From a virus, in IMG/VR virus record IMGVR_UViG_3300025896_001356, positions 13,161 through 77,160 of that record: 64,000 nt of DNA. One strand, given 5' to 3'. A program made the position numbers and the translations under genes. The notes beneath the pieces are model-generated. The model saw nothing but the letters and a program-made list of their open reading frames with translations. It did no database searches and was not told where the DNA came from. Of this stretch, positions 12,856 through 36,324 are shown in pieces. The first letter of the stretch is position 1. Every line of letters begins with the position of its first letter.

Positions 12856-13839
12856 ATGCAAAAACTAAATCAAAAACGTGTTTTATGGGCCGAGGTAGAT
12901 AAAGAAACACTTCGGTTGACTGGAAAAACACAATCGCTTCACATAGCACAGCCAATCTTAACAAGTGATTGGGTACAGTTAAACCAATCAAACGCTGTTA
13001 TGCTAATGAACGGTACAAAGCCGTGGCAACACTTTGCCTGTGTTAACGGTCATGTGGTTGAAGTGGGTCCGGATATTGACCTTAACTTCTTAACACACAT
13101 TAGCCCAACTGCTTGGCCTGAAATCACAACAATTGATCATACATGGACTAACATCCCTTGGGTACCACTAGACATTCCGCGCATTGAACCTGATGACTGG
13201 GATTTATTTTGGAAGCTCTGGAATGAAAAGAATGCTAACATTACCAGGGCAGATACTACAGAAACGCAATACTGGAAGGGCTTATGCTGCTGGTTAAATC
13301 CTGTCATTGACTCGTCTAAGTTTAACTATAGCAATACAGTGGTTGAAGATTGGAGTATGCATTTTCCCAAGATGTTTGAACAAATACGTGCATGTTTGCC
13401 GTTTATGTTTGTAGAGAAGATTGTGCTATGGTCAAACATTAATCAAGTAAATCCGCACTTTGATCCAGATGTTGTTATCTACCCGTTTCCAGATAGCCTA
13501 CGTATTATGCTATGGGATACAAATGACAAGCCAACGTTCTATATGAACAAATGGCCAAAGCGTACAGAGGATTTTAATCCTGCTCCGGTGACTGTGCGCA
13601 CCAATGGAACTGGTTATGGTATTAAACCAGAACGTGTACCACACGAAGATAGAATGTATGTAGACTTGCCACAAGATACAAATACGTTTGTATTCAATAA
13701 TGGTGCATTCTTACATGGTGCTGATCTTGCCAAGCCAAAGATTATTATGGCTGTTAAAGGTCGCCCGAACATTTATAAATGGCTCAAAGCATTAGAAGCC
13801 AGTTACAACAAATACAAGGATATCATTCCAAAATGCTAA
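12856..13839 (+). CDS. Putative 2OG-Fe(II) oxygenase-fold protein
   Basis: PHFD...FLHGAD. Start taken at ATG 12856, just after TAAGTA. Confidence 0.6.
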   Translation: MQKLNQKRVLWAEVDKETLRLTGKTQSLHIAQPILTSDWVQLNQSNAVMLMNGTKPWQHFACVNGHVVEVGPDIDLNFLTHISPTAWPEITTIDHTWTNIPWVPLDIPRIEPDDWDLFWKLWNEKNANITRADTTETQYWKGLCCWLNPVIDSSKFNYSNTVVEDWSMHFPKMFEQIRACLPFMFVEKIVLWSNINQVNPHFDPDVVIYPFPDSLRIMLWDTNDKPTFYMNKWPKRTEDFNPAPVTVRTNGTGYGIKPERVPHEDRMYVDLPQDTNTFVFNNGAFLHGADLAKPKIIMAVKGRPNIYKWLKALEASYNKYKDIIPKC

Positions 13840-16009: not shown

Positions 16010-16648
16010 ATGATAGCATACACAGGTCCCGAGAACGATAAGCGTAAGATTGAAATTAAGTTCCCAGACGGAAAGAAACGTATCGGAGTGATGCTAAGTG
16101 GTGGTGCAGATTCTGCTATCTTACTTTATTTGCTGGCGTTGGAACGTAAGATGGAATGCAGTGATCAAGAACTAATTCTGTTTACTGTGGCGCGGGCTGA
16201 TGGCGCCTGGAATTACGTCAAACCAATTGTAGATAAAATCAATACTATGCTAGGCATTATCCTGCCAGATCCAATACAAGTTGGCGATCCAACGCTACAC
16301 CATAGCAAGCAAGGTCGCAGTGGAGAGATTGAGGCGCGAGCACAGCATGGCATCGAACATTTTTTCTATGGTAGTCAGCAGCACCCACCAAAGGAGATGA
16401 TTGAGTTGCCTGGCATCTATCCTAATCGACCCGACTCTGTTGAATTACCCGGCACTACTATTCCATTTGCATTAGTCGATAAGCGGCATACACTTGGGTT
16501 ATATGAAGTCTTTCAAGTATGGTCTTTGATCGAGCTTACTCATTCATGTACAGCACAAACCGTAGGCCGTTGTATGGAATGTTATAACTGTAAGGAACGT
16601 GAATGGGCGTTAGACGAATTAGGTATCAGTGACCCCGGGGCGATGTAA
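16010..16648 (+). CDS. QueC-like PP-loop ATP pyrophosphatase
   Basis: LSGGADSAIL PP-loop and THSC-x6-CMECYNCKER zinc site. Confidence 0.7.
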   Translation: MIAYTGPENDKRKIEIKFPDGKKRIGVMLSGGADSAILLYLLALERKMECSDQELILFTVARADGAWNYVKPIVDKINTMLGIILPDPIQVGDPTLHHSKQGRSGEIEARAQHGIEHFFYGSQQHPPKEMIELPGIYPNRPDSVELPGTTIPFALVDKRHTLGLYEVFQVWSLIELTHSCTAQTVGRCMECYNCKEREWALDELGISDPGAM

Positions 16649-32835: not shown

Positions 32836-32864
32836 TTGACAGTGCGGCTGGCTTGCAGTATAAT
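32836..32864 (+). promoter_or_regulatory. sigma70 consensus promoter
   Basis: TTGACA-17-TATAAT. Confidence 0.85.
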
Positions 32865-32883: not shown

Positions 32884-33468
32884 ATGGCAAATGAAATGAA
32901 CTACAACAAGCCTGGCAATCATATTATGGTTGACTTAGAAACACTTGGCACTAAACCAAATAGTTTAATGCTTACTATTGGCGCTATTCGTTTTAACCCT
33001 TGGGCAGAGGATACTAACAATCCAATGGAGAAGATGGATACGTTTTATCGACGTGTTAGTTTTGAAAGTTTTGAAGGATTAGATCATGTCATTGATGACG
33101 ACACCCTTGCTTGGTGGGGAAAGCAATCTGAAGAAGTTAGAGAGGAAGCATTTAATGAAGAAGGCCGTGTTGATATACGTGATGTTTTGCGCGATTTCCA
33201 TCGCTGGTGCGGTGGTGTTGACGCTATCTGGGCAAATGGTACCGGGTTCGACTTAAACATCCTTGAACACTTTAGTCGTGAACTGAAGCGCGGGGTTGCA
33301 TGGAAGTATTGGCAGGCTCGTGATGCCCGCACATTATATGCACTTGTTCCTGGTCTTGAACGACCACAAGGTGCTGCTCACCATGCACTATGGGATTGCT
33401 GGAGCCAACTGGTTGGTGTGCAACGTTCCTTCAAAGCTCTTGGTATCAATGAGTTAACTTCTCGTTAA
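32884..33468 (+). CDS. DEDDh 3'-5' exonuclease (exonuclease VIII/RNase AS-like)
   Basis: MVDLETLG, WANG..FD, RDART, HHALWD. Confidence 0.88.
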   Translation: MANEMNYNKPGNHIMVDLETLGTKPNSLMLTIGAIRFNPWAEDTNNPMEKMDTFYRRVSFESFEGLDHVIDDDTLAWWGKQSEEVREEAFNEEGRVDIRDVLRDFHRWCGGVDAIWANGTGFDLNILEHFSRELKRGVAWKYWQARDARTLYALVPGLERPQGAAHHALWDCWSQLVGVQRSFKALGINELTSR

Positions 33469-33486
33469 TACTGTACTAAGTAATAC

Positions 33487-33550
33487 ACCGGTCTTCGGAC
33501 ATCATCCCGGTATACAAACTCTGCTGCCTATGCTATAATCAACATAGGAG
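33487..33550 (+). ncRNA. Candidate preQ1-I-like riboswitch / structured queD leader
   Basis: ACCGG/CCGGT stem, 15-nt loop ending CAUC, A-rich tail AUACAAACUCUG, then a CCUAUG/CAUAGG hairpin over the SD. Confidence 0.5.
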
Positions 33551-33556
33551 AAAACA

Positions 33557-34066
33557 ATGGCAACAACACTAACCCCAGTCGCATACAAATATACTTCAAC
33601 TAAAGAGTATCATGATGCATTTCCGTGCGCTTATCGTCAATGGCGATCCGACTCACACTGCAATCTAATTCACGGCTATTCATTTAGCATGAAGTTCTAC
33701 TTTGGAACTAACGAGCTAGATGCACGTAATTGGGCTGCTGACTACGGCGGACTTAAAGAACTAAAGAAGACCTTAGAGAGTCAATTCGACCATACACTTA
33801 TTGTAGCACAGGATGATCCGGATATGGAAACATTCAAGTTGCTGCAAGAGCGGAACATGGCTAAGATCGTAGTGCTACCTAAACTAGGATGCGAAGGCCT
33901 AAGCGACATGCTTTACAAGTATGTCAATGGCGTTTACATCCCAGAGATGTGGGGTGAGGGCGAATCAAAGCGTCTTTGGTGTTACAAAGTAGAAGTACGT
34001 GAAACACAAAGTAATATGGCGTTCCGTGAAGGACACCGTGAGTGGAATGAGGACCTGTTCGCTTAA
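33557..34066 (+). CDS. queD: 6-carboxy-5,6,7,8-tetrahydropterin synthase (QueD/PTPS family)
   Basis: HCNLIHGY, DYGGLK, FDHT, GCE, VRET. Confidence 0.85.
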   Translation: MATTLTPVAYKYTSTKEYHDAFPCAYRQWRSDSHCNLIHGYSFSMKFYFGTNELDARNWAADYGGLKELKKTLESQFDHTLIVAQDDPDMETFKLLQERNMAKIVVLPKLGCEGLSDMLYKYVNGVYIPEMWGEGESKRLWCYKVEVRETQSNMAFREGHREWNEDLFA

Positions 34067-34317
34067 TGCGATTACTTCAACTTAAAGAACTTCAGCAAAG
34101 CTATAGCTTAACTCAAGCTGTCAGGCCTGCTGAGGTTTGGGGATTACCAATCCAACCCGAAGCTGAAGGAATCTCGCTGACTATTATCGAGTCCATAGCC
34201 GACGTAGCAGAAGGATGGACTGGCTGGGGTTTTGGACAACAGAATACCTGGTTGCTATTTGAAAAACAAGAAGATGCTATTATAGCAAACGTTACGCTTG
34301 GAGAGTCGTATGTCTAA
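34066..34317 (+). CDS. Hypothetical protein
   Basis: TAATG overlap. Confidence 0.55.
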   Translation: MRLLQLKELQQSYSLTQAVRPAEVWGLPIQPEAEGISLTIIESIADVAEGWTGWGFGQQNTWLLFEKQEDAIIANVTLGESYV

Positions 34318-34519
34318 CATTAAATCATTTCTAGGCAAGCAAATTGATCAAGACGCTGCAATCATTGATAAAGAAATTGTAGTGCAATCAAAGCACAATC
34401 TGGATACATTGAGTGCTATGACGAAGAAAGAGGTCATAGCTTATGCTCATAAGTATGCTATACTAATTAACTCCCGCAAGAAAAAGGAAGAGTTAATAGA
34501 TACCATTCTAAGGAACTAA
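34298..34519 (+). CDS. Small protein with Rho-N/HeH-like C-terminus
   Basis: [13 protein letters not shown]...[11 protein letters not shown]. Confidence 0.55.
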
Positions 34520-34520
34520 T

Positions 34521-34859
34521 ATGGATAATCAAGTAAACATTACAGATGCAGCATACGCCAAGGTTAAGGAGATTATCTCCGAAGATGCCAAATTGGAAGG
34601 TGTAGCATTGCGTATTTTTGTGCAAGGTGGCGGATGTTCGGGCATGGAATATGGCTTTACATTTGATGCAGATGTGAACGACGACGACTTTAATTTTGAG
34701 CAAAATGGTATCAAGGTCTCAATTGATTCGATGAGCATGACATATCTAACAAATGCAGTCATTGACTACAAAGAAGATTTAAACGGTTCAAGATTTTCAA
34801 TTGAAAATCCAAATGCACAAACTACATGCGGTTGCGGTAGTTCTTTTAGTCCGAGCTAA
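34521..34859 (+). CDS. erpA: Fe-S cluster insertion protein ErpA/IscA
   Basis: [26 protein letters not shown]. Confidence 0.92.
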
Positions 34860-34861
34860 TT

Positions 34862-35086
34862 ATGGAAATTGATTACCTCTCAATGACGTTTGACCAACTT
34901 ATGGAGCGGCAACGTATGATCACTAAAAAATACAACGCTGCATATTCTGGCGGTGCAAGTCAAGAAGTTAAAAATCAAATTTTAAATCATATGGATGCTA
35001 TTCGGCAAGCCATGTATGAAATTGGCTACAAGCAAAGTTTTGCAGCAAGTGATAGTGATGATCCATTCAAAGACAGCATTATCTAA
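34862..35086 (+). CDS. Hypothetical protein
   Basis: Operon packing. Confidence 0.55.
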   Translation: MEIDYLSMTFDQLMERQRMITKKYNAAYSGGASQEVKNQILNHMDAIRQAMYEIGYKQSFAASDSDDPFKDSII

Positions 35087-35087
35087 C

Positions 35088-35564
35088 ATGCCAACTACAA
35101 CATTAGTGGAGAATGATTTGGTAGAATTATTGTACCAAGGTAAAATGGGATTGCTTACAGCGGATCGTAGTCTACTAACAACTTATGATGCTGGTTGTTC
35201 TGCATTGGGGCAGAATAAAGTGTTTAGTGTTGTCGAGCTACCAGAATCAGTTGAAGAAGCAGTTAAGCAATGGAATATTCCTGCACATATCGAAGAACTT
35301 GATTTAGACGTTTACTTTGCAACCAAGGTAGAAACGTTGGAAGAAGCCTTGCGAGTAGTAGAAGAATTGAGATTGTATAGAGAAAAGAAAATGATACCAA
35401 TGCTTAGATTTATGATCTATTTGGTAGAGGTAATGAAGGGCAATGATATTGTCTGGGGAGTTGGTAGAGGTAGTTCAGTTAGTTCCTTTCTATTGTATTT
35501 GGCAGGACTACATAGTATCAACTCGGTTAAGTATAATTTAGATATCAAGGAGTTTATTAGATGA
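35088..35564 (+). CDS. DNA polymerase III alpha (DnaE)-like fragment
   Basis: IVWGVGRGSSVSSFLLYLAGLHSINSVKYNL matches the DnaE GRGS region; only ~158 aa. Confidence 0.8.
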   Translation: MPTTTLVENDLVELLYQGKMGLLTADRSLLTTYDAGCSALGQNKVFSVVELPESVEEAVKQWNIPAHIEELDLDVYFATKVETLEEALRVVEELRLYREKKMIPMLRFMIYLVEVMKGNDIVWGVGRGSSVSSFLLYLAGLHSINSVKYNLDIKEFIR

Positions 35565-35950
35565 GCAATTCACGGTACAAAACGCACACTGGACGAGAGT
35601 TCAACATGAGTGCGTTCGCTGAAAAAAATGGTGATACAAGGGCCGTTGGTAATGTATCAATGAACGCCCGCGGAGATATTGTAGATGCAAAGGGCAATGT
35701 AAAAATTCCCACACAAACAATATCACGTGCATTAGCAGATATTAAAAATAATGAGAGCAAAACTGTTAGCCTAAAAGCTGATGAAAGCATTACTCCAGTT
35801 CAGAATAATCCAGTACGTGCTGACAATATTCCTACTATAGTAGCTTCGCGCGAAGTTAATACCATTGATGGCCCTGCGACAGAAGTTGAATATTCCGATG
35901 GCAGCATGCAGGTTATTCCAAAAGTACAATCAACCCCAACGAGCCTATAA
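35561..35950 (+). CDS. Hypothetical phage protein
   Basis: AVGNVSMNARGD motif. Confidence 0.65.
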   Translation: MSNSRYKTHTGREFNMSAFAEKNGDTRAVGNVSMNARGDIVDAKGNVKIPTQTISRALADIKNNESKTVSLKADESITPVQNNPVRADNIPTIVASREVNTIDGPATEVEYSDGSMQVIPKVQSTPTSL

Positions 35951-36324
35951 TGCAAACAATTAGACCTTTACAAAATCGCGTCCTTGCTGAACTAATGGGG
36001 CTTGATGACCGTGTTACTGCCAGCGGCATTATTATCAAATCCGAAGATGGCAAGGATCGCGGAGTACGACCGCGCTGGGCCAAAGTACGCTTAGTAGGCG
36101 AAGGCATTGATTGGGTACAGCCCGGACAGTATGTATTAGTATCACATGGTCGATGGAGCAGACAATTTGAAACTGAGCATCTGGGTGAGAAACTCAAGCT
36201 AGTCTACCTTGACAACAAAGAAGTATTGGCTGTATCGGATTCTGATCCAATGGACGACTTTGTAGGTGTTGGTATTGATACTGCCCCAACCATTCACCGC
36301 GCAGAAGATTTCGGCGCAAATTAA
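35950..36324 (+). CDS. GroES-like co-chaperonin
   Basis: IRPLQNRVL, TASGIII, VRLVGEG, VQPGQYV. Confidence 0.85.
   Translation: MQTIRPLQNRVLAELMGLDDRVTASGIIIKSEDGKDRGVRPRWAKVRLVGEGIDWVQPGQYVLVSHGRWSRQFETEHLGEKLKLVYLDNKEVLAVSDSDPMDDFVGVGIDTAPTIHRAEDFGAN

Follow-up and report, generated by a model that had tools for sequence, protein, structure and literature searches.

What does the gap ahead of a QueD-like gene do in an uncultured giant phage? The gap in question, 88 nt at 33469-33556, lies in a stretch of 64,000 nucleotides (positions 13,161 to 77,160 of the IMG/VR record IMGVR_UViG_3300025896_001356), which we refer to as the window. It comes from a fragment of 77 kb that belongs to an uncultured freshwater giant phage; CheckV estimates the completeness of this fragment at 23% and rates a related record of 383 kb as complete. 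A first-pass annotation, made from the letters alone, had proposed that the gap carries a riboswitch resembling class I preQ1 riboswitches (preQ1-I). Here, we describe an RNA pseudoknot in this leader that is conserved among related phages. It is probably a device for translational control in cis of the QueD gene, and most likely the aptamer of an uncatalogued riboswitch class that is restricted to phages.

The sequence features listed in the earlier proposal can all be read directly in the letters, where it had placed them. The box TAAGTA stands at 33477-33482, and the stem ACCGG (33487-33491) / CCGGT (33507-33511) encloses a 15-nt loop, UCUUCGGACAUCAUC, with a terminal C; the A-rich tail AUACAAACUCUG is present as claimed. 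The hairpin CCUAUG (33527-33532) / CAUAGG (33543-33548) also exists and overlies the AGG in the Shine-Dalgarno (SD) site AGGAG, and TG-n-TATAAT is found at 33531-33539. When the window's leader is folded as a single sequence, the result is what chance gives: the minimum free energy (MFE) is -14.6, compared with -14.0 +/- 2.6 for shuffled sequences (z -0.24). Related leaders were compared in an alignment (A3) of 77 loci, which comprises 56 distinct rows. Because all of these loci were found via the protein, the set is free of selection on pairing. The parts of the structure that the alignment defines, with stems denoted P and loops denoted L, are as follows.

33487-33491, + strand: 5' strand of P1, ACCGG, pairing with 33507-33511
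33492-33496, + strand: L1, UCUUC, a variable first base followed by an invariant C and U
33497-33504, + strand: 5' strand of P2, GGACA-U-CA, pairing with 33522-33528; the separate U is a conserved mismatch
33505-33506, + strand: L2, UC; C33506 is invariant and abuts the 3' strand of P1
33507-33511, + strand: 3' strand of P1, CCGGU
33512-33521, + strand: L3, AUACAAACUC, A-rich, 10 nt, containing invariant A's and, just ahead of P2, an invariant UC
33522-33528, + strand: 3' strand of P2, UG-C-UGCC; the separate C is a conserved mismatch

Over the 56 distinct sequences, P1 is 99.6% paired and covaries in three of its five pairs (AU/UA, GC/CG and CG/AU/UA). P2 is 77% paired when the register is held rigid, as against 33-49% for slid controls, and six of the seven P2 pairs show double changes. 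In 500 shuffles, the values observed for P1 and P2 were never attained. In addition, the duplex between loop and tail has an energy of -6.08 kcal/mol, compared with -4.76 +/- 0.20 kcal/mol for permutations, none of which (0/2000) was as low. In its general form, P2 joins 5' GGCAU-U-CA in the loop to 3' UG-C-AUGCC after the tail; in the window, A33499 is bulged or mismatched. The CA of a conserved UCAUC pairs with the UG of a conserved UCUGC, and this CA/UG changes jointly to CG/CG in 5 distinct sequences (columns 25/45: AU 47, GC 5); the same exchange recurs in a locus that was located through a different gene (L335). G-U pairs are confined to the + strand (e.g. GU in 13 sequences at columns 18/52), and therefore the structure is one of the sense RNA and not of the DNA.

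The alignment of related leaders, which the first-pass annotation had suggested as a check, thus reveals covariation in both P1 and P2, the latter in a shifted register. The pairing originally put forward for the second helix, between CGGA of the loop and UCUG of the tail, is formed in 59% of cases among relatives and shows no double change, while the covarying helix lies a few bases away; this register was rejected. For an alternative fold with a GUC-UUCG-GAC tetraloop, GUC...GAC can be seen by eye only in close relatives of the window; this fold is not general, because the first base of L1 is A in 17 of the 56 sequences.

Conservation is concentrated on several unpaired bases. Whereas the first base of L1 varies (column 8: C 19, U 20, A 17), columns 9 and 10 are C and U, respectively, in 56/56 sequences. 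In L2, column 28 is C in 56/56, and in L3, column 36 is A in 55/56, columns 39 and 41 are A in 56/56, and columns 43-44 are UC in 56/56. The U-C mismatch inside P2 is conserved as well. Invariant unpaired bases at helix junctions are a pattern typical of ligand pockets. From the comparative evidence, we judge that the leader RNA at 33487-33528 adopts a compact fold, an H-type pseudoknot.

In IMG/VR contigs, more than 599 close relatives of the QueD-like protein are found, the best 80 of which are 86-95% identical to it. A covariance model constructed from 45 non-redundant leaders, with P1 alone annotated, detects the motif in 77 of 81 sources at 37-69 bits. The four misses are sources without upstream DNA; that is, the motif is present in 77 of the 77 loci that have it, and the leader is conserved across these related queD-like genes, as the riboswitch proposal had assumed. 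The motif is always on the sense strand, with one copy per genome; the window's own record and five larger related ones contain exactly one strong copy each. Second copies in two records (G000 and G003, 14-16 bits) contain only the tail and a partial P1 and were judged to be chance matches, one of these weak hits falling in an apparent coding sequence. A scan of IMG/VR with the motif pattern gave at least 120 matches; among the matches listed, 114 have a perfect P1 and 3 further ones differ at one P1 position, in one of them merely by a G-U pair. A pattern scan of 185,579 prokaryote genomes gave one true motif among the 120 matches listed, the rest being without P1. This single copy (L194:2507-2555, - strand, 45 bits) probably stems from a phage contig that ended up in the bin of a metagenome-assembled genome, or from a prophage. 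The motif is undescribed in the literature searched and has no catalogue entry in Rfam 15.

The genes on the two sides of the gap differ greatly in how consistently they accompany the motif. In the window, they are as follows.

32884-33468: gene for an Rv2179c-like 3'-5' exonuclease, upstream of the gap
33557-34066, + strand: gene for a QueD-like protein of the 6-pyruvoyl-tetrahydropterin synthase (PTPS) family, 169 aa, identified by Pfam and PHROG

In 179 of 189 instances, the motif is directly followed by the QueD-like gene. In 2 of the 189 it precedes a canonical QueD gene (encoding CxxxHGH), which is itself followed by the QueD-like gene, and in a few instances another small gene is inserted between the motif and the enzyme gene. 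When loci were instead collected via canonical CxxxHGH QueD, a diverged motif (35-58 bits) was found before QueD in about 10 of 80, and at three of these diverged-copy loci a QueD-like gene (40-42% identical) comes next after the canonical one. At L074:2551-3492, and also at L334, L341 and L356, the motif heads a two-gene operon of canonical QueD (141 aa) and, immediately after it, a QueD-like His-to-Tyr paralogue; the two proteins may act together or in sequence. The upstream gene, on the other hand, is not conserved, being an exonuclease in 1 of 67 loci. We also considered a recoding signal (frameshift or readthrough) for the upstream gene and rejected it; promoters intervene, and because the exonuclease occurs in only this one locus, a recoding role for the upstream open reading frame (ORF) is excluded.

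A few loci depart from the usual arrangement. At L038:2529-3002, the motif copy that has diverged most (37 bits) is separated from the QueD-like gene by an ORF of 133 aa. By eye, this ORF is similar to T4 endonuclease V (DenV), though it has no NCBIfam match; it may have entered the leader recently. In rare cases (L274, L281 and L286), the first ORF past the motif, of 113, 240 and 234 aa, respectively, does not belong to the PTPS family.

The pseudoknot is followed by a region that can hide the start of translation, for which two features are relevant.

33527-33548, + strand: SD-sequestering hairpin CCUAUG/CAUAGG, which has the CC of its 5' arm in common with the 3' strand of P2
33546-33550 and 33557-33559, + strand: translation initiation region, consisting of the SD AGGAG and the ATG, respectively

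The SD hairpin appears in both the MFE and the centroid folds, and at the start codon UGGCA (33558-33562) is complementary to UGCUG (33522-33526). Three types of leader can be distinguished, with different sequestering helices, each of which overlaps the 3' strand of P2. In the two types other than that of the window, the start codon is paired with the 3' strand of P2 and adjacent bases in a helix of 7-8 bp (for example, UGCCAUUG/CAAUGGCA and UGUCGUC/GAUGGCA), and the base 5' of the AUG covaries with its partner. The knot and the sequestering helix are mutually exclusive in all three types. With the strands of the knot masked, the SD is predicted to be unpaired with a probability of 0.87 in the window, up from 0.30; the corresponding averages are 0.70 and 0.32. 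Since the two structures exclude each other and the SD is predicted to be freed when the knot strands are masked, the leader wiring points to an ON switch, and not to the OFF logic that the first-pass annotation had implied.

The mechanism that we propose is the following. The 3' strand of P2 would also be part of a competing helix over the ribosome binding region, which in the window would consist of two parts, the CCUAUG/CAUAGG hairpin at the SD and the UGCUG/UGGCA pairing at the start codon. The knot would be stabilised, presumably by a metabolite that the invariant C reads and that is guanine-like, a pterin or a 7-deazapurine; once stabilised, it would release the SD and the start codon and thereby turn translation on. 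In leaders of the window's type, a sigma-70 promoter inside the element would in addition yield a short transcript free of the switch. In a more specific form, which we put forward tentatively and with rather less confidence than translational control as such, the leader represents a new phage-restricted riboswitch class that uses a scaffold like that of preQ1-I, senses another guanine-like metabolite, or reads one in another manner, on the way from GTP to pterins and 7-deazaguanine, and activates the translation of QueD. Candidate ligands would include dihydroneopterin triphosphate, CPH4 and preQ0.

Several points weigh against this reading. The ON direction is derived from nearest-neighbour folding with masked strands and not from a pseudoknot energy model. 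In the window-type leader, the predicted accessibility of the start codon falls from 0.59 to 0.05 with masking; it fails to rise because other pairings replace the lost one. Across all sequences, the start region shows only marginal complementarity to the 3' strand of P2 (83 of 2000 permutations). The window's own P2 duplex is imperfect by one bulge or mismatch and is worth only -2.7 kcal/mol. The motif is absent from the cultured phages that have homologous QueD-like genes (ACP17, R5C, X1 and Phosso), three of which are entirely without a leader. In general, ON control is less common than OFF control for biosynthetic genes. Moreover, the upstream promoter of the window is poor, and an internal promoter may dominate expression.

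The two promoter positions concerned are as follows.

33474-33482, + strand: possible upstream promoter box TACTAAGTA, which includes TAAGTA and is weak in the window
33511-33539, + strand: internal sigma-70-type promoter TATACA-17-TATAAT with TG, with 10/12 matches plus the TG

Among 53 distinct leaders, 26 have a T4-late-like TAAATA/TAAGTA box that starts 12-20 nt before P1. A strong sigma-70 promoter, TTGACA-16/17-TATAAT and often a perfect TTGACA-16-TATAAT, is found in 13 of the 53 and ends 7-9 nt before P1; given these positions, the RNA would begin at the motif in the leaders of either group. The upstream box of the window is 10 nt from P1, and there is no good sigma-70 match there. The -35 box of the internal promoter overlaps the 3' strand of P1 and L3, and its -10 box lies in the loop of the SD hairpin. 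This promoter is present in 29 of the 53 leaders, and the 24 leaders without it keep the whole knot. Its presence coincides with a C at position 4 of L3 (29/29, as against 0/23 when T or A occupies this position), a base that makes the -35 box; judging from this pattern, one position of L3 seems to be shared by the putative aptamer and the -35 box. A transcript from the internal promoter would contain neither the aptamer nor the 5' arm of the hairpin over the SD and could thus bypass the switch, so that the bypass suggested earlier for the extended -10 holds for the window's type of leader.

Transcription may also arrive from further upstream. No terminator-like site was found between the exonuclease gene and the leader, so read-through from the former is possible. 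Just before the exonuclease gene, at 32836-32864, there is a perfect sigma-70 consensus, TTGACA-17-TATAAT (12/12), and read-through from it would transcribe the pseudoknot too. A contig of 1165 nt from a metatranscriptome library covers 33359-34523, which is weak evidence of transcription, as carry-over of DNA is possible and transcript starts are not resolvable.

How well do other explanations account for these data? The element might be a translational operator at which a phage or host protein, rather than a metabolite, recognises the knot and sets the translation of the QueD operon. Autoregulatory pseudoknots are known from phage leaders, and the presence of a QueD-like gene in the operon in nearly every instance is compatible with autoregulation. 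However, the regulated T-fold proteins are small-molecule enzymes with no known RNA binding, and the downstream gene encodes a PTPS/QueD-family enzyme and not a nucleic-acid-binding protein as in the case of T4 gene 32. In addition, the element is tiny (~42 nt), its invariant bases are located at junctions and not on an exposed surface, and it also precedes canonical QueD, which is 29% identical to the QueD-like protein. We consider such an operator unlikely, although it deserves to be kept in view; if it were protein-operated, the motif would still be a widespread and uncharacterised translational operator. It is also conceivable that no ligand of any kind is involved, and that the knot folds by itself during transcription and keeps the ribosome site open on RNAs initiated at the proximal promoter, or sets the stability of the mRNA, the competing helix silencing only some forms of the transcript, as in T4 e, soc and 49. 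The two promoter positions, one upstream of the hairpin and the other inside it, would suit this explanation; so would the length of P2, which in some types of leader attains 7-9 pairs and may then need no ligand to be stable. On the other hand, the invariant unpaired junction bases and the U-C mismatch in P2 are hard to explain by folding alone, and the leaders that have no internal promoter (24/53) keep the whole knot nevertheless; we find this explanation distinctly improbable.

The proposal from which the analysis started, in its strict form, is that of a true class I preQ1 riboswitch that binds preQ1 or preQ0 and represses queD. The H-type architecture, the 5-bp P1, the invariant C before the 3' strand of P1, the A-rich L3 and the association with a gene family of the queuosine pathway all agree with it, but the Rfam models, which had been named as a check, do not. 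Searches with cmscan gave no PreQ1 match at E<=10, either in 33300-33700 of the window or in an AGAGG-type variant (L020), the one closest to the B. subtilis preQ1 sequence, and there was no match to any Rfam family at gathering thresholds over the whole 64 kb. The class I model alone (RF00522, gathering threshold 39 bits) was silent at the five motif sites of five genomes at E<=10, while it scored 9.5-15.5 bits at unrelated sites. Apart from an antisense chance match to PsrR1, none of the other families of Rfam 15, including SAM-II, SAM-V, preQ1-II, fluoride and guanidine-III, matched the motif at E<=10. Furthermore, the L1 base next to P1 is unconserved, P2 is extended and interrupted by a conserved mismatch, the SD lies outside P2, and the wiring points the opposite way. 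Membership of this class is thus very unlikely. Least credible of all is that the feature exists only at the level of DNA, as a promoter plus an operator palindrome, or that the fold is due to chance. A good sigma-70 promoter does overlap the element in the window, where the single-sequence fold is no better than that of shuffles, but compensatory changes keep two interleaved helices, the G-U pairs are strand-specific, and 24/53 leaders keep the motif in the absence of an internal promoter; the covariation therefore contradicts a purely DNA-level explanation.

The nature of the regulated enzyme is of interest for a metabolite-sensing riboswitch, the reading that we favour. The QueD-like protein matches Pfam PF01242 (1.9e-15) and PHROG 2389 'QueD-like' (2.7e-35) and scores under the NCBIfam cut-off for QueD. 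Compared with the canonical QueD of L074, it keeps Cys-x3-HG, and two His positions, which we take to be zinc ligands in canonical QueD, are changed to Tyr. Its homologues in cultured phages (41-52% identity) adjoin genes for GTP cyclohydrolase I or QueC, and a role in the 7-deazaguanine pathway is therefore plausible. FolE is present in 4 of the 5 larger related records, including the 383-kb record rated complete. In that record, Pfam searches at E<=0.001, which divergent phage forms may escape, found neither QueC nor TGT/DpdA; TGT/DpdA had no Pfam match in any of the five larger records. Two partial related records have weak QueC-family matches of 22-24 bits, just over the cut-off. The window itself has a 212-aa frame with a weak C-terminal match to the QueC family (~16460-16621, corresponding to G000:29620-29781; 15.6 bits, below the cut-off), which may, from this similarity, be a divergent PP-loop enzyme of the QueD pathway.

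Other genes follow the QueD-like gene in the window. About 450 nt past it, at 34521-34859, is a gene for an ErpA/IscA-type iron-sulfur insertion protein (NCBIfam NF010147, 9e-45), homologues of which are found 1-3.4 kb past the motif in 11 related loci; such a gene is consistent with the many radical-SAM genes elsewhere in the same genome. At 34995-35564, the match of a 189-aa ORF to the NTPase domain of DNA polymerase III alpha (PF07733) is limited to the domain's beginning (24-94 of 260), and the ORF may be a split or fragmented polymerase gene. A 124-aa ORF at 35950-36324 has a weak Cpn10/GroES match (PF00166, 1.4e-4) and is possibly a phage co-chaperonin like T4 gp31.

The QueD enzyme feeds 7-deazaguanine synthesis and may also feed pterin synthesis, and 7-deazaguanine is used by some phages to modify their DNA against host restriction. 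If the leader is a metabolite-sensing switch, the giant phage would tune this auxiliary pathway to the metabolite pool of its host. If QueD is under ON control, this would suit a feed-forward scheme in which its substrate, or a related pterin or purine, is sensed, and would suggest that an intermediate of the pathway exerts the control. To our knowledge, all riboswitches that have been seen in phages copy bacterial classes; one that is found only in phages, is common in lake viromes and precedes a QueD gene would mean that phages evolve metabolite sensors of their own. With a length of ~42 nt, the aptamer would rank with the smallest that occur in nature, and would offer a natural comparison for the re-tuning of the preQ1-I scaffold.

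Among known RNA families, the closest scaffold is that of the class I preQ1 riboswitches (RF00522), which comprise types I-III, with examples in B. subtilis queC, T. tengcongensis and E. coli. These riboswitches are H-type pseudoknots with a P1 of 5-6 bp and an A-rich L3 that lies in the minor groove of P1; a conserved cytidine in L2 is the specificity base, conserved uridines in L1 and adenines in L3 read the edge of the ligand, and control is of the OFF type, via sequestration of the SD (PMC10622847). The phage element likewise is an H-type pseudoknot of ~35-45 nt with a 5-bp P1; it has an A-rich L3 that could lie in the minor groove of P1, and it forms the leader of a gene of the queuosine/7-deazaguanine pathway. 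C33506 is equivalent to the specificity cytidine by position only. In contrast, the L1 base adjacent to P1 is variable in the phage element and not a conserved U, the invariant CU being offset after it; P2 has 7-9 positions, among which a U-C mismatch and the CA/UG pairs are conserved; L2 is just 2 nt long; and the 10-nt L3 ends in an invariant UC and not in A. Moreover, the SD is located outside P2 (18 nt 3' of it), the platform appears to be of the ON and not the OFF type, and the element is almost confined to uncultured phage contigs. As far as its sequence and inferred structure tell, the phage element is not a member of preQ1-I. The likeness that the first-pass annotation had noted thus stands for the architecture (the H-type pseudoknot, the 5-bp P1, the C of L2 and the A-rich L3) and not for the class.

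Comparable arrangements are known from leaders with other kinds of regulator. The leader pseudoknot of T4 gene 32 is operated by a protein. The E. coli rpsO leader pseudoknot is likewise operated by a protein, S15 (PMC3985624). The phage element resembles both in that a small H-type pseudoknot in a leader, in competition with an alternative fold, would control translation; unlike it, however, these two are bound by the nucleic-acid-binding proteins that their own genes encode, while the phage gene encodes a T-fold enzyme. In T4 genes e, soc and 49, a hairpin hides the ribosome site and a late promoter lies inside it. Similarly, the -10 box of window-type leaders lies in the loop of the SD hairpin, and a transcript from it would lack the 5' arm and be freely translated. 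In T4, however, the internal promoter is of the late type, and the hairpin is not preceded by an aptamer. Finally, the adenine riboswitch of Vibrio vulnificus add is a translational ON switch whose aptamer is a three-way junction. The add aptamer has a known ligand, whereas the phage element is a pseudoknot and a putative aptamer; in both, nevertheless, a strand of the aptamer is shared with the helix that hides the SD or the start codon, and the fold stabilised by the ligand frees, or in the phage would free, the ribosome site.

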